A DNA stretch of 64,000 nucleotides from a virus, in IMG/VR virus record IMGVR_UViG_3300027970_000012, positions 27,445 to 91,444 of that record. One strand, 5' to 3'. Below are positions 4,216-32,576 of the stretch, piece after piece. The notes under the pieces were generated by a model, which saw only the letters and a list, made by a program, of their open reading frames with translations, was not told the DNA's origin and made no database searches. Both the position numbers and the translations under genes were made by a program. Every line of letters starts with the position of its first letter. Positions within the stretch are counted from its first letter, which is position 1.

Positions 4216-4914
4216 TTATGTCAAGTGATTGAGGTTGATAAATGACAACACATCCTCAATTGGTAAAATATCAGTAAGATGTTCGGTCATTCCCCGACCC
4301 ATGCTCATTTCAGTTAATGGTGACTTGTATTGAGAAAACTCCTTCAAAACTTTCTTTTCTAAATTCCATATATCTATAGATTTTCCTGACCACTCTCCAA
4401 TAAGCTCAGACGTTTCCTTTTTACGATATAGCCAACCTTTATATGACCTACCTATTTTATAATTACCATTGTGAAGTTTTATAAAGTAAAGTTTATCTGG
4501 TCTCTCATTATCTTTTGGTCTCTGAAATCCAGACCAAGGTTGCCCATTAGCTGTTATTCTTTTTCTTGCTTGGGAATACTTCTCAAGTGTTTCCTTACTA
4601 TATGGAGTTGAATTTTTTACTCCTTCGGGTCTCCCACCAACTCCAGGACACTTTTTACCCTTGTTCCAGGGTGATTTTTGGTGAGCAGGATTATTTTTTC
4701 CAAGTTTTGCCTTTCTACCACAACAAGTTTTACTGGTCTTCATACCGCAAACTAGTATTTCTCGTTCACCAGAACATTCACAATATACCTTTATCCTTTC
4801 TCTTTTTGTATGAGTTCTATTTTCGCCCCTATATTCCAATTTCCTATTTTCACAAAGCTTATTTAGTATATCAAATGTGTAAGTTCCTTTCATAAAACTC
4901 TCATAAGTTTCCAC
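4216..4914 (-). CDS. Free-standing putative homing endonuclease (NUMOD-like motifs plus C-terminal GIY-YIG-like/T5orf172-type domain); likely start ATG 4893
   Basis: SPWNKGKK and YSKETLEKYS motifs; LYFIK..YKIGRS..LEKKVLKEF..GMTE; late promoter directly upstream. Confidence 0.7.
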   Translation of the reverse strand: METYESFMKGTYTFDILNKLCENRKLEYRGENRTHTKRERIKVYCECSGEREILVCGMKTSKTCCGRKAKLGKNNPAHQKSPWNKGKKCPGVGGRPEGVKNSTPYSKETLEKYSQARKRITANGQPWSGFQRPKDNERPDKLYFIKLHNGNYKIGRSYKGWLYRKKETSELIGEWSGKSIDIWNLEKKVLKEFSQYKSPLTEMSMGRGMTEHLTDILPIEDVLSFINLNHLT

Positions 4915-18739: not shown

Positions 18740-20023
18740 TCACTTTTTTGAAACACGCTCAAGAGCACTCATATAAACTCCCATTGTTCCACTTGGAATG
18801 GAATATGGAGTATATTCTGTAGAATCTTCTACAAGATAGTCCTGGCCATTTCTCTGAGTTCTAGTAGTTGTGGTGGGGAAATAAGATTCCTTGAGTGCAA
18901 CTAGTTTCTCACGATATTCTTCTTCACTATCAAACTCAACACTTTCCACAAGAGAAGCAAGCTTATCTTTCTGAGAAAGCGCAAGGCCCTCAGAAATTTC
19001 ACTAAAGATTACATCAGTTACTGATTCTGCTAGTCTTTTGTTGAGAGAAACATTTCTCTCTATTTGTTCGTTGAGTTTATTCTCCATCTCGTCAAGTTTA
19101 TCAGTCATTGCCTCTAGCACATCATATCTATCTTCAGGAATTGTTACATAGTGATTTTCAAAAAGTTCCTTGAGGTTCACAAGGAAACTCTCGGTCATTT
19201 CGGCACGAAGTCCGTTTTCTATAGCTAGAGCATTTTCTTCAATCCATTCTTGAGCAACATACTCAAGATATGAATCTACTCTTTCGGTTAAAGCCTCAGT
19301 GATAACTTCAATCTCTTCGGCTAGTTGTTCTTCATATTGAAGAATGACTGCTTCTTCAATTTGTTCTGTTCTGGAATTCAGAGCAGCTTCAAATACAGTC
19401 TTGGCTTTAAATCTAAATTCTTCGGAGAGTTCTTCGCCTGAAAGAAGAGCATCTACATCTTCTTCAATCTGAGATTCAATTTCTTCAATCTGTTCTTGAA
19501 CTTCTTCTTTCTTTTTATCAGACTTCTTGGACTTCTTAAACTCTTTAGGAGTTTCTTCATCCTCGTCATCTTCTTCATCGTCATCGGACTTAGAGGATTC
19601 GTCATCTTCTTCATCGTCATCATCAGACTTGGAAGATTCTTCTAATCTAGGCTCATCTTCGTCATCTTCTAAATCAGATTCGTAATATTCATCATCTTCT
19701 AAATCTTCTTCATCTAAGTCTTCCTTTACAGCACCCTTAGGTAAGGACTTCATTGAGTCTGCTTTACCAGCTCCACGATTTACAACATCTCTAACTTGAG
19801 CTAGAACTGCCGATGCATCTTTCAGCTTGGCGCTATCATTATCAGGCTTGTAATTATCAGGTGTTGGACCACCTAGGTCTTCCCAACTGGCCGTCTGACC
19901 ATCGGGAATATTTTTGGTAAGTTTAGGAAGTGGTTCTGCAGGTTTTGCTCCAGAGTTCACAACATTTTTTACGTGCTTTGTGCCTACTTCCATTTCTTGT
20001 AGATTTTTTCTTCCACGAGGCAT
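18740..20023 (-). CDS. gp22: Prohead core scaffold protein
   Basis: WEDLGGPTPDNY, LSEEF..KA.TVFEAA, YLEYV..EW; acidic coiled coil. Confidence 0.93.
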   Translation of the reverse strand: MPRGRKNLQEMEVGTKHVKNVVNSGAKPAEPLPKLTKNIPDGQTASWEDLGGPTPDNYKPDNDSAKLKDASAVLAQVRDVVNRGAGKADSMKSLPKGAVKEDLDEEDLEDDEYYESDLEDDEDEPRLEESSKSDDDDEEDDESSKSDDDEEDDEDEETPKEFKKSKKSDKKKEEVQEQIEEIESQIEEDVDALLSGEELSEEFRFKAKTVFEAALNSRTEQIEEAVILQYEEQLAEEIEVITEALTERVDSYLEYVAQEWIEENALAIENGLRAEMTESFLVNLKELFENHYVTIPEDRYDVLEAMTDKLDEMENKLNEQIERNVSLNKRLAESVTDVIFSEISEGLALSQKDKLASLVESVEFDSEEEYREKLVALKESYFPTTTTRTQRNGQDYLVEDSTEYTPYSIPSGTMGVYMSALERVSKK

Positions 20024-24722: not shown

Positions 24723-26873
24723 TTAAACGCTTCCTACAACTTCGGAGAATGAAACTCCTGTTTTTGTAGCCACAAAAGTCAGTCCTACAAAATTGATAGA
24801 CCTGTTTGGTTTGATATAAATATCAGCCTTGAATTCATTTGCATCAATCACATCAGGAGTGTTGTTTGACTCATCACATACCAATATAAATTCTGAAATT
24901 CCACGTTTTGCTCTTACATCTCTTAGATAAGGCTCAACAATATTAATGAAGTTAGTTCTTGTGATAGAATCGTTAAATTCAAATAACTGGGCTCTGGCAG
25001 CCTGCTCAATAGATTGTTCTAAAGTTAAGAATAACATTCTCACGTTGATTCTATCAAAGGCTGATGGGTATGCTAGACCTGTCTTATCTCCAAAAAGAAT
25101 ATATCCAGAACCTGCAGAAGAGATGATAGGATTGATTCTGTTTGAATATAGTGAATCTCTTTGAGTTTTTGTTGGATTGTAAGCTAGTTTGATGATATTG
25201 TTGATAGTTCCTCTGGTGCTTCCAGCAGGAGAATACCAAGGATAGCTGTTTATAGAAGTTCTTACAATTGCTCCTGCAACATCAGAATTACAAGGAATAT
25301 ATACAAACTTGCTATTGAAACGGTCTAGAGTATACTTATATCCACTATCAAAGATTACATAAGAAGAAGATTTGATAGGAGAGAAGAACTGTAGAATGGC
25401 GTTTGTTTGAGTAGTACTATTATTACTTCCCACTACACTAGACTTGTATGGAGAAACAACAGCAATACAGTCTTTTCTAGACTCTGCAATGTTGATAAGT
25501 TCATTTGCCTTTGCTTGAGCATCATAAATTGTTGGTCCACCAGATGGTCCACCCAAAATAAAGTTAATAGAACTTGCTTCTACATTTAGAAAGAGTCTAT
25601 ATGACGTAATAATATCTTGTGTACTGACTGAGTATCCACCAAGGAAATTCACTCCGCTATAATCTGTTCCTCCAACTAAGTTATAAAGTCGTGAGCCGAT
25701 TACGTTGTAGGATTTATCTTGAACCGCAGTTCCCCAAGGACTTGAAGTTAGACTATAAGTATTTCCACTCAGTTGAGTGATATCTGAAACTCTTCCTGCT
25801 TCTGGGAATCCAACAAAGACATAGTTTGAATTCTGATTTACAAATTCTTTATAGTAGATGGGTTGAGATGGTGAAATTCGGGCATCAATACCTTTGGATA
25901 GTCCAGTGAATTTTTCAAGAACGTTTCCAGATACTCCACTAATTACACCAGTATCATCTACAACTACAACGTGAACCTCATCACTCTTTGCATTTCTTTC
26001 TAGAGCATATTGAGAAGTTCCAGGCTTTGGTGCAATGGATTTCCAATAGATAATTCCATTCTTGAGTGATATAACTTGATTATCATACCAGTCTTGAATA
26101 GCTCCAGAACTTACAGTGGTGACTACAGTTCCTGCAGTTCCAGTAACAGTCAGTGCAGTAGTGGTGGGTGCAACTAAAGAGGATACCACAGAGCTGTAGT
26201 TGTAGTTAATATCAACTTCTTGACCAGCACTTGGAACTCTGCTGATAACTTTAATATCAAAGGAACTATTACCAATACCCGTAATTAGTCCTCTGACGTA
26301 GCCAGTGAATGTGCCCACAGTACCATCAGCTTGTAGGTATTGTGTAGCAGTTTTGGTTTGTGTGACCGCAAGACCTACCTGAATACCACTTGTGGAAATT
26401 CCAGTTACAGTTTGGTCTGCTGCAGCATCAATTACACAAACTTTCAGGTCATTTGCCCAGGAACCAGGATTTCTTGCAGAAAATACCCAATCCACATCAT
26501 TGATACGATTGCTTTGATAATCTTCGTATGAAGTGATTTTTAACGAAATGGAAGTATTTGCAATTGTAACATTAGAGTTAATCAGTGCAGAAGGATTTCC
26601 AGTAACATCGCTTCTTACAACATTCAGTGCTCCACCATAAGATAGGTAGTTAGATGCAGACAACCAGTATTCATATTGGTCTTCTGATGTTTGTGGTTTT
26701 CCAAAAATATCTAATAATTCTTGTTCTGACTGAATGATGGTTGGAACATTTACTGGACCCTTCTGAAATGGACCGACAATGGCTCCAACATTCTGTCTAC
26801 TTGAAACAATATTTCCTCGTGTTAAATCAACCTCTCTTATATTCACACCAGGAGATACCAAATTGATAGCCAT
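24723..26873 (-). CDS. gp18: Tail sheath protein (start at MAINLVSPG)
   Basis: LVSPGVNIREVDLT, PWYSPAG..RG, AFDRINVR, FVATKTGVSF. Confidence 0.96.
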   Translation of the reverse strand: MAINLVSPGVNIREVDLTRGNIVSSRQNVGAIVGPFQKGPVNVPTIIQSEQELLDIFGKPQTSEDQYEYWLSASNYLSYGGALNVVRSDVTGNPSALINSNVTIANTSISLKITSYEDYQSNRINDVDWVFSARNPGSWANDLKVCVIDAAADQTVTGISTSGIQVGLAVTQTKTATQYLQADGTVGTFTGYVRGLITGIGNSSFDIKVISRVPSAGQEVDINYNYSSVVSSLVAPTTTALTVTGTAGTVVTTVSSGAIQDWYDNQVISLKNGIIYWKSIAPKPGTSQYALERNAKSDEVHVVVVDDTGVISGVSGNVLEKFTGLSKGIDARISPSQPIYYKEFVNQNSNYVFVGFPEAGRVSDITQLSGNTYSLTSSPWGTAVQDKSYNVIGSRLYNLVGGTDYSGVNFLGGYSVSTQDIITSYRLFLNVEASSINFILGGPSGGPTIYDAQAKANELINIAESRKDCIAVVSPYKSSVVGSNNSTTQTNAILQFFSPIKSSSYVIFDSGYKYTLDRFNSKFVYIPCNSDVAGAIVRTSINSYPWYSPAGSTRGTINNIIKLAYNPTKTQRDSLYSNRINPIISSAGSGYILFGDKTGLAYPSAFDRINVRMLFLTLEQSIEQAARAQLFEFNDSITRTNFINIVEPYLRDVRAKRGISEFILVCDESNNTPDVIDANEFKADIYIKPNRSINFVGLTFVATKTGVSFSEVVGSV

Positions 26874-26963
26874 ATGTTTTCCTCTGAACCAAAGTCTCAT
26901 TTCCTAGTAGTATTTAGGAAAATTGATTTTTATCAGACCAGTTGTGTTAAATTATACAAAAAT

Positions 26964-28211
26964 TTATCCCATATAAAATTCGGACGAAACATCTCCATAC
27001 TCATCTAAATTCCATACTTCCATCGGCATATTTTCTGTATTCGCCATCATCCAAACATCTCCAGTTTCTTTTTCAACTGTAATTTCATCATCATTCTCTA
27101 ATCCAGTATTAATAAATCCAAATGGAGCCATATCTTGTTCAATCTGCTCCTTCTGTTCAAGATACATTCTCTTACGAATGTCATTGTTGGTAATTTCTTT
27201 GAAGTATTCCTGAACAACTAACCAAGAGAAAATTACGATACACATACAAAGGTCATCATTCGTTCCAATTTCAGCTTGATATGAATTATTTTTGGATATG
27301 AATGTAGTTAACTCACTAATAATATCAAAGTCTTCAATGATAAGTTTATTGTCCTCAATGATGGTTTTCATATTAGAACAACCCACTCTCTTTACTTGCT
27401 TGGACATTTTGATTCCTAACTGTGAGGTCTTACCCGAAAATCCTTGTCCAACTAATTGTCCAGCTCTACCTCTCATAGAACACATTAGAAGATTTTCATA
27501 CTCAAGTTCATATTGTAAGTCTTTGGCTACTTGGTCTCCTACACTTGCGATTTCAATGAGAACATAAGCTTTGTTATATGAATTTGCTACCTTATAAATG
27601 ATATCTGGAAGAAGTAGTGGCTTAAGTTCATTATTTTTATACTTTGCAACAATCTTGTATGGAATATTTGTGATGTCGTATATGATGAATGCGTGATAAT
27701 CCTTACCCGTTCCTTCTGAAACGTCCACAGTCATAATGTAATTGTGTTCCTCTATAGGAGGTTCATACACATCAAGTCCTTCAGACCGAGTAATTGGGTC
27801 GTTGTATATTAGGTTTTGTAGTTTTGATGAGGTAATGAGCGTATCAACAGAACCTAGGAAACTACAGTTGTGTGATACTATATTGTTAGAATAATAAAGA
27901 TGGTCTTCTCCAGAGTTGACAATATCAAATAATTCTACTTCTTTCTTAATGGTTCGGTATGATTTGAGAAATGTTCCACCATTCTTGGTAAAAACTTCTG
28001 TTGTCTTATTTAAATTCTTAGCTTTGACAATACCATCTATTGTAGAGAGTGGATGGTCCAAAGAGCACTTGAGTTCATTTCCGTCTTCAAATATTAAATG
28101 AATATATTTGTTCTTCTTAATCTTATTGACGCCCAGAAAAGATTGAAATCCATTTGGAGTTGAGATTTTAATCTTTTTATGATTTAATACTATGGTTTCT
28201 GGAAGCTTCAT
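26964..28211 (-). CDS. gp17: Terminase large subunit C-terminal fragment fused to split intein C-half
   Basis: 115 aa IntC ending SHN, then CSFLGSVDTLI; RNase H-like VDVSEG..DY and NDDL motifs. Confidence 0.93.
   Translation of the reverse strand: MKLPETIVLNHKKIKISTPNGFQSFLGVNKIKKNKYIHLIFEDGNELKCSLDHPLSTIDGIVKAKNLNKTTEVFTKNGGTFLKSYRTIKKEVELFDIVNSGEDHLYYSNNIVSHNCSFLGSVDTLITSSKLQNLIYNDPITRSEGLDVYEPPIEEHNYIMTVDVSEGTGKDYHAFIIYDITNIPYKIVAKYKNNELKPLLLPDIIYKVANSYNKAYVLIEIASVGDQVAKDLQYELEYENLLMCSMRGRAGQLVGQGFSGKTSQLGIKMSKQVKRVGCSNMKTIIEDNKLIIEDFDIISELTTFISKNNSYQAEIGTNDDLCMCIVIFSWLVVQEYFKEITNNDIRKRMYLEQKEQIEQDMAPFGFINTGLENDDEITVEKETGDVWMMANTENMPMEVWNLDEYGDVSSEFYMG
27867..28211 (-). mobile_element. 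Atypically split intein, C-half (115 aa)
   Basis: IKISTPNGF, block B CSLDHP, block F LFDIVN, block G IVSHN|C. Confidence 0.9.
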
Positions 28212-28236
28212 TCAGTTAGGAACTTTATACATCTAT

Positions 28237-28356
28237 TTAATGTTTCTTGTTTATATGAGTTCTGGTCTTAAATCCATATTTTTCTGCTATTTGTTGATGA
28301 GTCATATTTAGATTATGATAATCAAATTCAATCTGTTCCTTGGTTGGATAGTTCAT
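28237..28356 (-). pseudogene. 39-codon stub of an HTH-bearing endonuclease-like gene between the split intein halves
   Basis: MNYPTKEQIEFDYHNLNMTHQQIAEKYGFKTRTHINKKH*. Confidence 0.55.
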
Positions 28357-28432
28357 TATAAAGTTCACCTATGGTGGTTTCAACTACAATACCATTAACC
28401 ATTATATTTATCAAGGTTTCAGGTAGGAACGA
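28328..28432 (-). mobile_element. Atypically split intein, N-half (34 aa, Ser1)
   Basis: QEFE|SFLPETLINIMVNGIVVETTIGELYNELSNQGTD*: block A and the TI.ELY helix only. Confidence 0.85.
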
Positions 28433-31400
28433 TTCAAATTCCTGATTCCATTGCTCTAAGCTCGTATTTGCGATACTTTGCTGCTTAAATTTCTCGTCTC
28501 TACCTGGAACCTCACTCCAATGAACCTCAGTTGGAACATATTCATTCTTACCACGTATGGCGTCATTCCAAAATCTATAAAAGGTATTCATTCCTTTAGG
28601 GGTTTGGTGGCCTAAAAAGTTGTTGTATAATACCGAGTGCGCCCAAGAATCATCAGCAATATCGGGTAGAGAAACATCAAAAACTTCATTCTCACTTAAT
28701 TTAATATCTTTAATTTCTAACCAAATCATATTTTCGTTCACATTATCATCAAAGAATCTTTTAATATTTTCATTAGAGCATAACTCTTCTTTATTTTCTA
28801 ATAGAAGTTGTCTAGAATAATTTTTAAATTCCTTATGCCTTCTTCCCAATGAAGGCATTCCATTTTCAGCTAGAATTACTGCAGAATTTGGAATAATATC
28901 GGTTCTACTTCCAACTCTAGTTGAAGCTTTCAATAGATTGATTCTTTCTAATTTTCTTGGTAGAGAGAACCCAATTTGAGAGAAATATTCAAATGCATAT
29001 TTACCGACTATTTCAATATCAAAATGAGTTGAACTAACTTTAACTCTTTCTGAAGGTCCAGAAGTAGCTATATAAATGCTACCTAGTATGCCCATATTAG
29101 CTAATAATAATTGAACTTGACGAATTAACTCTCTTGAAGTTGAAGTATATTTAACTCTTCCTTTATTATCAATACCTCCATCACCATCAAACATCCCTCT
29201 TAATAGAGCTGTAATGTTAGATTTAGACCAGGACAACACTTTATCTGGCAGTGTTTTTACTCCAGCTTTATTTGTAATATCAAATCCTAGTTCTTTAAGA
29301 AAATCTACAAGTTGCTTTGAATTGATGACATAATGTACATCATCAATCTTTTTATATGGAACATTTAGAGTATTCAAACAATATGAAATATCGTCACCAC
29401 AACTGATTACAATTTGTCCACCAGTAATATTGTGAGTATTCTTGGATACACAGTCTCGCGCATATCCCTCTGCAACATAAAGCCCGACAAAATATGCAAT
29501 GTCTTCAGTTATATAATCACAACAAAATGTGTCAATACATTTTCCCTGTTCTGGATGAAATCCGATGTAATCTTCATTTCCAAAAACTTGATGATTATAT
29601 TTTATGGCTAAATAATCGCCTACTTTTAGATGTTTACTCTCTACGTAATTATACTCATTGTTGTGAAACGCCCAAAGTTTATGAGTTTGAGAGCATTCTA
29701 ATGTTTCATACCGAGTGGTTATAATATTTGTAGAAGAAGCTTGATGATTAACAATAATATCACTGGTATAGAACTTATTCTTACCCATTACAGTATACTC
29801 TGGAACTTGATAAGCACCTGTTTTGGAGATATCAATAAGCCTCTCAATTTTTCTGTATCCTTTATTTGTAAGAAGATAGGTATCTTTTGATACACAAGAA
29901 ACCATAATTACCTTGGTGTACTTACCAGAAGTAATCGTAGGATATACAGAACTAAAAAACTCGTCTGCAATTTGATTCGGAATGAACGCAAATTCGTCCA
30001 GGAAGATTACATTATATGAACCTCCTCGGACGGCAGAACCAGAAGTAGAAGATGCAATAATTTTTGAACCATTGTCCAGTTCTAGAGAAGCCTTATTCCA
30101 AATCTTAACTCCATGTTGCATCCATTTGGGTAGATTCTCATAGGCAAGCTTTAGTCTACCTAAAATATCTTTTGCAGTTTGAGCTTTGTTAGCTAGAATG
30201 GCGACATTAACATTATCATTGAATATGATATAGTGAAGTAGATATGAGATAGCTGTAGTCGTATTATGAGTAGGAATGAATGTTCTTCCACATAGAAATA
30301 AGTGAGTTTCACTATCTACTTGAATACACGCTACAGGAACACTCTCCACTTTTTCTATATTTTGTATATAATGTCTGGTATTCTGTGGCCTACTTTTTCT
30401 CTCAAAATTTATTAAATTTAATTTTCTTGGAAGATTGAAAATACACTCCTTACTAGCAAATCTGATGGTATAGTACCAACATTGATTAATGAGTCTTCTA
30501 CTTACTCTAGACTTTATTCCTAATGTAGCTAATAGTTCAACAACCTGAAGAATAAGCTCATAATTTTTTTGATAAAATTCAAATGATTGAGTTTTTGTAA
30601 TTGACCCATCAGAATCCATCAGTCCTCTCAACAATTCCAATCTCTGGTCTACTGATGCTCGTAGATATTCTTGAGGAATATGTTTATTTTTCAATAAACT
30701 ATTTTCTTCCAATTCTTTATTTAACCCACGACACTTGAACCGAATACAATTCTTATAGACTGTCTCCTGTTCAACATCAATTTTAGTTTTATAAAATTCA
30801 TAATCATCTTTATGGGCAACGATTCTCCCCTCGTGAGACGAACCATCACCTAACCAAAGACCAAGAAGATATGGGTCTATTGGTAAATCTTTGGGAGTTC
30901 CGACCATTGGTTTGGAGCATTCAATATAAAATGCGCCAGCCACACCTTTTCCTCTTTTGTTGTTGGCTTTTTCAGAGTATCTTAAATACATTTCATTTGT
31001 ATTGATAACTCTCTTTCCAGCAGTCCAATAAGAACTATTTACTTCCCACAGATGTTCTGCATCGGCAATAATTTCTTCACCATTATCAAAGTATATTTTA
31101 TAACATTGATGATTTAACATCGTTTCTGTTTTAAATGTTACAGAAACTGGATTCCCATTTGGAGCAAGTACCCTATCTCCGACCTGGATATCCCCAATTG
31201 TAGTCCATCCTTCAGGAGTTGGTATTGGAGTATCTAACGATAATGGCTTACCAACCTGGCGTGGTAATTTACAAATATTGAATCTATGTTGATGAAACTT
31301 CTTAATGAGTTTCTCTTGAAACTTATATAATTTAAATGGAATGAGACCTTCATCAAGGCTCACAATTTTAATATAATTTCTTGCAAAATATACTGGGTCC

Positions 31401-31507
31401 TTCTTACACTTAATGAACTCCTGAATATTTTCTGCAGTGAATTCAATGGATATATTTGCTCTCTTTAGAAGAGGATTACCAGAGTAAATTTCATTGGCGG
31501 CAGCCAT
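28328..31507 (-). CDS. gp17: Terminase large subunit N-terminal fragment with two cis inteins and a split intein N-half
   Basis: PRQVGK|TT Walker A, IFLDEFAF Walker B, VS|TPKG motif, QEFE. Confidence 0.95.
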   Translation of the reverse strand: MAAANEIYSGNPLLKRANISIEFTAENIQEFIKCKKDPVYFARNYIKIVSLDEGLIPFKLYKFQEKLIKKFHQHRFNICKLPRQVGKPLSLDTPIPTPEGWTTIGDIQVGDRVLAPNGNPVSVTFKTETMLNHQCYKIYFDNGEEIIADAEHLWEVNSSYWTAGKRVINTNEMYLRYSEKANNKRGKGVAGAFYIECSKPMVGTPKDLPIDPYLLGLWLGDGSSHEGRIVAHKDDYEFYKTKIDVEQETVYKNCIRFKCRGLNKELEENSLLKNKHIPQEYLRASVDQRLELLRGLMDSDGSITKTQSFEFYQKNYELILQVVELLATLGIKSRVSRRLINQCWYYTIRFASKECIFNLPRKLNLINFERKSRPQNTRHYIQNIEKVESVPVACIQVDSETHLFLCGRTFIPTHNTTTAISYLLHYIIFNDNVNVAILANKAQTAKDILGRLKLAYENLPKWMQHGVKIWNKASLELDNGSKIIASSTSGSAVRGGSYNVIFLDEFAFIPNQIADEFFSSVYPTITSGKYTKVIMVSCVSKDTYLLTNKGYRKIERLIDISKTGAYQVPEYTVMGKNKFYTSDIIVNHQASSTNIITTRYETLECSQTHKLWAFHNNEYNYVESKHLKVGDYLAIKYNHQVFGNEDYIGFHPEQGKCIDTFCCDYITEDIAYFVGLYVAEGYARDCVSKNTHNITGGQIVISCGDDISYCLNTLNVPYKKIDDVHYVINSKQLVDFLKELGFDITNKAGVKTLPDKVLSWSKSNITALLRGMFDGDGGIDNKGRVKYTSTSRELIRQVQLLLANMGILGSIYIATSGPSERVKVSSTHFDIEIVGKYAFEYFSQIGFSLPRKLERINLLKASTRVGSRTDIIPNSAVILAENGMPSLGRRHKEFKNYSRQLLLENKEELCSNENIKRFFDDNVNENMIWLEIKDIKLSENEVFDVSLPDIADDSWAHSVLYNNFLGHQTPKGMNTFYRFWNDAIRGKNEYVPTEVHWSEVPGRDEKFKQQSIANTSLEQWNQEFESFLPETLINIMVNGIVVETTIGELYNELSNQGTD
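28604..29896 (-). mobile_element. Intein with LAGLIDADG endonuclease and C-terminal Gln (431 aa)
   Basis: IMVS|CVSKDT...GLYVAEG...LRGMFDGDG...NNFLGHQ|TPKG. Confidence 0.92.
30263..31246 (-). mobile_element. Class 3 intein with LAGLIDADG endonuclease (328 aa)
   Basis: GK|PLSLDT (Pro1); WCT signature in ADAEHLW, VACIQV, PTHN|T; LGLWLGDG and LRGLMDSDG. Confidence 0.92.
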
Positions 31508-31513
31508 AATACT

Positions 31514-31690
31514 TTATATTGGTTTGATACTACTCATTGTCTCTAGAGTAGATAGGTGCAACTTTATATAGGATTTGAATAAAGACTTCAATGTGTCTAC
31601 ATTTTCGCATTTATCAATCTCTCTACACAGACAGATAAATTCAAATTGCTTACTCAAATCTTTTAATTCAATTCCATCAGAATTCGGCAT
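31514..31690 (-). CDS. nblA: NblA-like phycobilisome degradation adaptor, not in the ORF track
   Basis: 58 aa MPNSDGIELKDLSKQFEFICLCREIDKCENVDTLKSLFKSYIKLHLSTLETMSSIKPI; L..LSKQFE...REID helix-loop-helix pattern; TGATG coupling. Confidence 0.6.
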   Translation of the reverse strand: MPNSDGIELKDLSKQFEFICLCREIDKCENVDTLKSLFKSYIKLHLSTLETMSSIKPI

Positions 31691-32157
31691 CAAGTATCTC
31701 CATATAAAAATAAGGGTTTCGTGGGGTCGTGTTCACTTGGACTGAACTTCAATACTCTTGCTTCAGGGTATATCTTATTAATTTGATGAGACATTTCTGC
31801 TTTAGTAGGTCTAGAAAATCCAGAAACAAAAATTTGAAGAGTCCTAGGAATTCCTCTCCAAGTAAACAGTATATGATAAGTGTTTCCAGTTTTCTGTAGC
31901 CGTGTATACGATTCTGACATAGGAGATTCTATTGTTTCTAATTTATCATAATAATTTGGAATTTCATCTACATGTTGAGCAGCTATTGTGAGTGCTAATC
32001 TATTGTTGGTAGTATGCTCTTTTTCAATCTTATGTCCTTTATTTAGTTGTTTTTGAATAAATTTTACGGACACCCCATACTTTTTAGCCAATTGCTCAGG
32101 AGTTTTTGATGATTTTATTGAGCGTAAAATCTTTGAAAGTTCTTTGTATGATTTCAT
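31690..32157 (-). CDS. Hypothetical virion-associated protein (DUF5661-like)
   Basis: QL.KG.KIEKEHT...IA.QH..E.P.YY.KL. Confidence 0.65.
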   Translation of the reverse strand: MKSYKELSKILRSIKSSKTPEQLAKKYGVSVKFIQKQLNKGHKIEKEHTTNNRLALTIAAQHVDEIPNYYDKLETIESPMSESYTRLQKTGNTYHILFTWRGIPRTLQIFVSGFSRPTKAEMSHQINKIYPEARVLKFSPSEHDPTKPLFLYGDT

Positions 32158-32576
32158 TTCATGCTTTCCTTCAGGAACTTCTGTAGTTCTGCAGTAGAAC
32201 CCACAAAAAGAGCATTCGTGGTATTCTGAGTAACTTTAGTAGTAGATTCTTCTTTTATTTTCTTGAGTTTTTGCTGATTGTCCAACAGCTTATCAGACAA
32301 ATCTCCAACAGTTTTGAGTAGCTGCCCGACGACTTCAAAATCTCTAGCTTTTTCAGATTCAATTGCAGTATTCAACATTTCATATGTTGCAATCGTTCCT
32401 AATTCAATCAATTCGTGAATTGTAGTTCTCGCTGAAGAACTATCTCCATCGTGAATTTCAGGAGTAATCTTTAGTGGAATGGATTTCTTTGGTCTCTTGA
32501 CAATAGTTTTCTGAGACTCCTCTCTTTCAACCTCAATGCCTAGTGCATCATCTATGGGGGAAAAGCTGTCCATCAT
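32154..32576 (-). CDS. gp16: Terminase small subunit
   Basis: R.FEV.GQLLK, NALFVGSTAELQK. Confidence 0.92.
   Translation of the reverse strand: MMDSFSPIDDALGIEVEREESQKTIVKRPKKSIPLKITPEIHDGDSSSARTTIHELIELGTIATYEMLNTAIESEKARDFEVVGQLLKTVGDLSDKLLDNQQKLKKIKEESTTKVTQNTTNALFVGSTAELQKFLKESMK

Follow-up and report, generated by a model that had tools for sequence, protein, structure and literature searches.

A T4-like phage large terminase gene carrying three inteins of different predicted splicing types

Introduction

How could a phage obtain a normal large terminase from a gene that is interrupted three times, each time within or beside a conserved motif? This question is raised by a gp17 (large terminase) locus of the IMG/VR virus record IMGVR_UViG_3300027970_000012, which has 91,444 bases and an estimated completeness of ~48%. 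We have analyzed positions 27,445 to 91,444 of this record, a stretch of 64,000 nucleotides (nt) that we call the window. In it gp17 is made of two consecutive open reading frames (ORFs) on the minus strand within positions 26964-31507, called here the N ORF and the C ORF. Very probably, this is a T4-like (cyanomyovirus-like) gp17 that was invaded independently at three conserved motifs by selfish intein/homing-endonuclease elements and that gives a normal terminase of 566 amino acids (aa) by splicing. The three insertion sites are designated a (Walker A, K|T), b (ATPase coupling or C-motif, S|T) and c (the E|C split).

The interrupted gene and its exteins

The closest relatives of the exteins are found in T4-like cyanophages such as P-SSM2, S-SRM01 and S-SM2. 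As a reference we used the intein-free gp17 of P-SSM2 (L001:1724-3367, 547 aa), aligned by BLASTP. The parts of the locus, all on the minus strand, are the following, with the N- and C-terminal fragments of the split intein named IntN and IntC.

28328-31507, minus strand: N ORF of gp17, 1059 aa
31247..31507, minus strand: extein 1, N ORF residues 1-87, ending with Walker A (...PRQVGK); P-SSM2 residues 1-84, with 72% identity over residues 3-84
30263..31246, minus strand: intein 1, 328 aa, predicted class 3 with LAGLIDADG endonuclease, Pro1...THN followed by Thr+1, between the K and the T of Walker A (PRQVGK|TTT)
29897..30262, minus strand: extein 2, N ORF residues 416-537, containing Walker B and the opening of the C-motif (...KVIMVS); 80% identity to P-SSM2 residues 85-206
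28604..29896, minus strand: intein 2, 431 aa, predicted class 1 with LAGLIDADG endonuclease, Cys1...Gly-His-Gln followed by Thr+1, in the C-motif (KVIMVS|TPKG)
28433..28603, minus strand: extein 3, N ORF residues 969-1025, ending with ...WNQEFE; 64% identity to P-SSM2 residues 207-263
28331-28432 (28328..28432 with the stop codon), minus strand: IntN of intein 3, 34 aa, Ser1 (SFLPETLI...TIGELY...), tail of the N ORF after QEFE
26964-28211, minus strand: C ORF of gp17, 415 aa
27867..28211, minus strand: IntC of intein 3, 115 aa, block B KCSLDH, ending with Ser-His-Asn before Cys+1 (CSFLGS), head of the C ORF
26964..27866, minus strand: extein 4, C ORF residues 116-415, 300 aa, RNase H-like nuclease domain beginning CSFLGSVDTLI; P-SSM2 residues 264-547, with 61% identity over residues 264-541; Terminase_6C, E = 4.2e-15

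The four extein blocks are collinear with P-SSM2 gp17 at identities of 61-80%, and together they amount to 87+122+57+300 = 566 aa, against 547 aa in the reference. Once the inserts are removed, namely 328 aa (PLSLDT...PTHN|T), 431 aa (CVSKDT...LGHQ|T), the 34-aa IntN (SFLPET...GTD, then the stop) and the 115-aa IntC (...IVSHN|C), both Pfam and the P-SSM2 alignment recover the arrangement of a T4-type gp17, with Terminase_6N (Walker A, Walker B and C-motif) followed by Terminase_6C. The Pfam matches comprise these two domains and two LAGLIDADG_3 domains, those to Intein_splicing/Hint being weak. No stops or frameshifts were seen inside exteins or splicing domains. Inteins 2 and 3 recur at the same sites in more than 100 protein clusters each, and the pattern of a gp17 with three inserts is far beyond chance.

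A first-pass annotation of this DNA had proposed the same intein anatomy, junctions and extein sum, and the comparison with P-SSM2 gp17 showed them to be exact to the residue. Its statement that the mature terminase needs two cis and one trans splicing reactions is also right as a reading of the sequence, and so are the three splicing chemistries implied: class 3 with a block F Cys, class 1 with a C-terminal Gln, and class 1 split with Ser1 and Cys+1. It took each type of intein to be already described, and each is indeed a known type.

A class 3 intein in Walker A

Class 3 inteins are defined by a co-varying triplet formed by Trp (block B:12), Cys (block F:4) and Thr (block G:5) (PMC2807308). 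When intein 1 was aligned with 13 relatives, the Trp (AEHLW, two residues after the block B His), the Cys at position 4 of block F (VACIQV) and the Thr before His-Asn (PTHN) were invariant, and likewise the His-Asn pair and the Ser/Thr at +1, which is Thr416 in the window. Residue 1 varies. It is Pro in the window and in the metagenome terminases P0017 and P0065, Ser in the relatives L003, L030 and P0002, and Ala in P0020, P0027 and the phages B23 and ECD7, as expected if this residue is not catalytic. Together with the triplet and the Ser/Thr at +1, this variation leads us to classify intein 1, from its residues, as an ordinary class 3 intein of a known family. Its relatives are present in 794 phage records, some of them outside terminases. 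Identity is 64% to the terminase intein of Synechococcus phage B3/B23, ~40% to those of E. coli krischviruses and 37% to Catera gp206; the terminase intein of E. coli phage ECD7 is homologous as well. The LAGLIDADG_3 domain scored 46.6 bits and both LAGLIDADG motifs are present.

In the mechanism that we propose for this intein, the block F Cys would attack the K-P bond, so that Pro1 need not be a nucleophile; the N-extein would then be passed to Thr+1 and released by Asn cyclisation. There are precedents for the residue and for the site, as the class 3 prototype MP-Be DnaB has Pro1 and splices efficiently, and terminase P-loops are known to carry class 3 inteins (PMC2807308).

A second P-loop site was also seen. 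In the metagenome terminases P0006, P0007, P0013-P0015, P0028, P0031 and P0034, of the same phage group, class 3-like mini-inteins of ~148 aa (...IPTHN|SGK) are inserted ahead of the Walker A GK, at a point that precedes the intein 1 site by three residues.

A C-motif intein ending in glutamine

Intein 2 (LAGLIDADG_3, 55.2 bits) has 171 homologues in the metagenome protein collection, with terminase Pfam domains on nearly all of them; among isolated phages its relatives are only distant, at no more than 27% identity. Residues were counted over the 111 homologues with a full-length alignment, all of which belong to terminase-family proteins. Cys1, the block B His (His72), the block F Asp (Asp407) and the block F His (His420) are invariant (111/111), the penultimate His430 is kept in 98 and Thr+1 in 109. 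The last residue is Gln431 in 103 of the 111, and Asn in the other eight. Thus the terminal Gln is no lesion but a residue that a large clade has conserved, and the nucleophile, blocks B and F, the His, the Gln and the +1 residue all agree with a class 1 intein with C-terminal Gln.

Splicing is known for other inteins that end in Gln, those of the CIV ribonucleotide reductase (RNR) and of the PolII of Pyrococcus abyssi (Pab) and Methanoculleus marisnigri (Mma) (PMC4031507). By analogy with CIV RNR and Pab PolII (PMC4031507), intein 2 would use Cys1 and Thr+1 and its branched intermediate would be resolved by cyclisation of the terminal Gln instead of Asn. A limited literature search found no description of a clade of Gln-ending inteins in the terminase C-motif, and this clade seems to be undescribed.

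A split intein and the remains of an endonuclease gene

The third insert interrupts the linker before the Terminase_6C nuclease domain. IntC matches chain B of PDB 6DSL ('Consensus engineered intein CatC') with E = 4.5e-21 over residues 8-120; when the 44-aa IntN region was compared with PDB sequences, nothing beyond chance matches came up, the peptide being too short. The published inteins of the atypically split GOS-TerL/AceL-TerL type are cut after the first helix into an IntN of 25-37 aa and an IntC of 104-115 aa, and in GOS-TerL itself the IntN is 37 aa long and can be shortened to 27, the IntC is 115 aa long and the nucleophile pair is Ser1/Cys+1 (PMC11766414). Intein 3 shows the same short IntN and long IntC, the same Ser1/Cys+1 pair and homology to the family. 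From these sizes, the residue pair and the 6DSL_B match, we assign it to the GOS-TerL/AceL-TerL type, GOS-TerL being compared by its published description. The 34-aa IntN of the first polypeptide would dock on the 115-aa IntC of the second, and Ser1 and Cys+1 would ligate the two halves in trans. For GOS-TerL, measured rates of trans-splicing are on record (PMC11766414, PMC10189870).

Ser1 IntN tails occur on 11 related N-halves (among P0001-P0034), and IntC has homologues in 109 clusters of IntC-nuclease proteins of 390-426 aa, with IntC identities of 49-100%. These data bear on a different reading of the two ORFs, in which the terminase works as two non-covalent subunits and the intein halves are a docking module without ligation, in the way of the NrdA of phage Aeh1, fragmented by a homing endonuclease gene. 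The Aeh1 case is a real precedent for a gene split by a homing endonuclease (PMC3045599), and the point of the split is a short way before the Terminase_6C domain. But intein 3 still has Ser1, the block B His, His-Asn and Cys+1, and HN|C is kept in 91 of the 109 homologues, which would be needless for docking alone; moreover, its homologues GOS-TerL and Cat-TerL are ligating inteins (PMC11766414). We consider a non-covalent terminase extremely unlikely.

The C ORF opens with a leader (MKLPETIV, residues 1-8, window 28188-28211) that follows the consensus M-x-(L/I)-P-(E/D)-(T/S)-(V/I). It resembles block A of the partner IntN (SFLPETLI), and the match to the PDB CatC chain does not start before residue 8. 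A chance origin, or a duplicated copy of the IntN block A, was set aside as the leader is conserved in ~100 homologues, and for the same reason it is probably functional. A sigma-70-like site (TTGAAA-17-TATAAT, 11/12, the best in the region) at 28383-28355 on the minus strand, inside IntN and upstream of the endonuclease remnant described below and the C ORF, was not adopted as a promoter. Promoter-like sites in the region numbered 19, against a shuffle expectation of 27.5, and were not above chance, and the -10 hexamer, as we read the alignment with the L003 DNA, is not conserved in that relative.

The interval of 116 nt between the gp17 ORFs overlaps an ORF of 39 codons, which BLASTN against the relative L003 allowed us to recognize:

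28237..28356, minus strand: 39-codon stump (N-terminal helix-turn-helix part) of a free-standing homing endonuclease gene, Vsr-like/DUF559

In L003 the intact counterpart (L003:3712-4824) is a gene of 370 aa that combines helix-turn-helix domains in its N-terminal part with a DUF559 (Vsr-like) nuclease domain in its C-terminal part; the stop of this gene overlaps the start codon of IntC. Both sides of the gap align between the window and L003 while L003 3811-4777 is skipped, which corresponds to an out-of-frame deletion of ~0.97 kb with its junction near 28254-28261. The window retains the first ~40 codons of the gene and, at ~28208-28254, the last ~15. A free-standing endonuclease gene between the two halves, the mark of a fractured gene, is therefore present in L003 and absent from the window, and with only the stump and the ~15-codon tail left the window would be a decayed derivative of such a gene. 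In the sequence of events that we propose, a free-standing Vsr-like endonuclease gene inside the intein gave rise to the split ("fractured gene"), and the later deletion destroyed this gene and left the split fixed. The endonuclease gene that presumably split intein 3 has thus apparently decayed, and the split persists. The first-pass annotation had missed both this decayed gene and the published GOS-TerL type of the split intein.

A related IntC (43% identity across IntC and extein) splits a more distant terminase in L022:5190-7464 and L023:645-2919. The split is there near P-SSM2 residues 166-170, in the Walker B region, with no endonuclease gene between the halves.

Occupancy of the three sites among relatives

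The relative L003, with a C ORF 82% identical, has a Ser1 class 3 intein at site a, an uninterrupted site b (KVIMIS|TPKG) and the split at c. L030 and L031 have inteins at a and b and no split at c. The IMG/VR contig L002 is much closer: from the C-terminal junction of intein 1 onward it matches the window at 4268 of 4269 nt (99.98%), reproducing intein 2, IntN, the gap and the C ORF, and it is also identical over 107 nt upstream. Between these parts, at site a, it carries a different element, composed of a Cys1 IntN of 39 aa, a DUF559/Vsr-like endonuclease gene and a 115-aa IntC sharing 31% identity with the IntC of site c. In L002 the terminase is encoded in three ORFs with two paralogous split inteins, which would have to avoid cross-reaction within one protein. 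The exteins of L002 and the window differ only by six synonymous changes, in the last eight N-extein codons; these look like a short co-conversion tract.

In contig coordinates, this site-a region falls within L002:1-1570, and L002 is otherwise 99.98% identical to window 26667-30935.

The precise absence of intein 2 from L003 and the other site-a element of L002 speak for dispensable selfish elements, and the near-identity of L002 in spite of a different split intein at the Walker A site also fits selfish mobile elements. We lean slightly towards the view that the locus captures an ongoing competition of unrelated mobile elements for one site, a class 3 cis-intein in the window and a split intein with a Vsr-like endonuclease in L002, with the synonymous tract of ~24 nt on the 5' side, and this alongside a large clade of Gln-terminated C-motif inteins that seems undescribed.

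We parsed 114 clusters that carry the site-b intein. A cis intein at a was found in 22, a split element at a in 6, the site-c split in 7 and all three sites occupied in 8. One of these eight, P0002 (1060 aa), is laid out like the window. P0017 and P0065 have a Pro1 class 3 intein together with the Gln-ending intein. Judged from these genes, the combination looks recurrent and combinatorial across clusters. That the three types in one protein are something rare, as the first-pass annotation implied, is not supported by these counts, and such combinations are common in environmental phage data.

The same comparisons speak to the suggestion, made in the first-pass annotation, of an adaptive checkpoint, in which packaging is gated by temperature, redox or metal and the unspliced ATPase and nuclease halves have roles of their own. 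In its favour, each of the three inteins interrupts a catalytic or linker motif, which should leave the protein inactive until it is spliced. Other inteins have been proposed to splice conditionally (see the discussion in PMC5050341), and the rates of GOS-TerL and AceL-TerL depend on temperature (PMC11766414). We found no evidence for such a checkpoint, and the differences in presence and absence among close relatives argue against a required role: L003 lacks intein 2, L030 and L031 lack the split at c, and L002 has another element at site a. The combinatorial look of the occupancy points in the same direction. So do the marks of selfish mobility, since neither cis intein has lost its homing endonuclease domain and an endonuclease gene once sat in the split. 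A conditional checkpoint appears to us quite unlikely.

Selection and integrity of the locus

A last question is whether the locus works at all, or whether it is a decaying pseudogene of a defective phage or a chimera of metagenome assembly. In favour of this, the record is only a fragment, of the estimated completeness given above, and the endonuclease gene in the gap is broken. Against this, the exteins and splicing domains are open throughout, all the catalytic intein residues are present, and the independent contig L002 repeats intein 2, IntN, the gap and the C ORF with one mismatch in 4269 nt. Exactly the same C ORF protein is encoded by 12 recorded contigs, of up to 148 kb. Selection argues in the same way, as far as it can be estimated. 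Compared with L003, the proportions of nonsynonymous (pN) and synonymous (pS) changes were 0.078 and 0.711 for IntC, a constraint equal to that of the exteins, 0.241 and 0.671 for intein 1 and 0.283 and 0.606 for IntN; pN and pS are quoted as dS is saturated and dN/dS not usable, and the estimates are rough. With this roughness, they suggest purifying selection on exteins and IntC. A non-functional or artefactual locus is very improbable.

Some points do weigh against independent invasion followed by splicing to a normal terminase. The rough selection estimates are one of them. Both Pro1 and a terminal Gln can slow splicing in some inteins (PMC4031507). No clear Shine-Dalgarno sequence is found upstream of the C ORF. 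The splicing of the three inteins and the expression of the C ORF are deduced for a locus known from a metagenomic virus record, and the LAGLIDADG activity of the two cis inteins is presumed only from their intact motifs.

Neighbouring genes

The gp17 ORFs are flanked by a tail-sheath-like gene (24723-26900) and a weak gp16-like small-terminase gene (32154-32576). Between the latter and gp17, a minus-strand ORF of 155 aa (31690-32157) has a DUF5661 domain (E = 3e-10); in cyanophage relatives unrelated small ORFs occupy this gp16-gp17 interval. Upstream of the window, the same virus record has more Intein_splicing matches, at G000:C1:9120-10183 and 18844-18951, one of them with an in-frame TAG.

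Significance and comparison with known systems

Our understanding of inteins or of terminase function is unchanged by this locus. Its value lies in having three splicing variants in one essential polypeptide, a natural test for orthogonal splicing, and in the parts that it offers, namely a short IntN free of Cys, a Gln-terminal family that is conserved and an intein of class 3 with Pro1. The near-identical and the 82% identical relatives give in addition a clean picture of intein gain, of replacement with a short co-conversion tract and of endonuclease decay fixing a split. We regard the site-a allele swap, the decayed endonuclease gene and the large Gln-terminal clade as moderately interesting additions.

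Each of the three elements has its counterpart among described systems. Intein 1 shares with the class 3 inteins of MP-Be DnaB, MP-Catera gp206 and terminase P-loops (Tori et al., 2010, PMC2807308) the Trp/Cys/Thr triplet, Thr+1, the K|T site of the P-loop and the LAGLIDADG endonuclease, and with MP-Be DnaB also Pro1. Nothing essential differs, and it is a further allele, in a cyanomyovirus-like gp17, with close relatives that have Ser or Ala at position 1. Intein 2 resembles the Gln-ending inteins of CIV RNR and Pab/Mma PolII (PMC4031507) in its class 1 layout, in the Gln that replaces Asn and in the penultimate His. It is unrelated to them in sequence and host protein and is located in the terminase C-motif; moreover, in its clade Gln is the conserved state and not an isolated variant. 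Intein 3 agrees with GOS-TerL, AceL-TerL and Cat-TerL (PMC11766414, PMC10189870; PDB 6DSL) in being hosted by a large terminase, as the name TerL implies. Its IntN of 34 aa compares with published lengths of 37 and 25, and its IntC of 115 aa and its Ser1/Cys+1 pair are those of GOS-TerL.

The layout of L003, IntN followed by a DUF559-Vsr-like gene with helix-turn-helix domains and then IntC, is exactly that of the fractured genes (Dassa et al., 2009, PMC2677866), while in the window an out-of-frame deletion has reduced the endonuclease gene to the 39-codon stump. Among those published loci there are a gp41 fractured locus without an endonuclease gene and a fractured gp17-like terminase locus of Myoviridae type from the Lake Gatun sample of the Global Ocean Sampling (PMC2677866).

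As for several inteins in one protein, a limited literature search found no multi-intein terminase. In the DnaE of Trichodesmium, cis inteins reportedly co-occur with a split intein, an observation attributed to Liu and Yang in 2003. The split dnaE of Trichodesmium erythraeum with multiple inteins and the RNR of this organism with four inteins are cited in PMC2874743. These enzymes and gp17 are alike in that several inteins are hosted by one essential enzyme; gp17 differs in being a phage terminase and in having inteins of three mechanistic variants. Finally, mycobacteriophage terminases have inteins at the P-loop K|T (the 'classic' site) and at the C-motif (TerL6-f), which splice and have active endonucleases (Kelley et al., 2016, PMC5050341). 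The same two sites are occupied in gp17 of the window, but the inteins described there in actinobacteriophages are single ones per protein (PMC5050341), whereas in this T4-like gp17 three sites are occupied at once.

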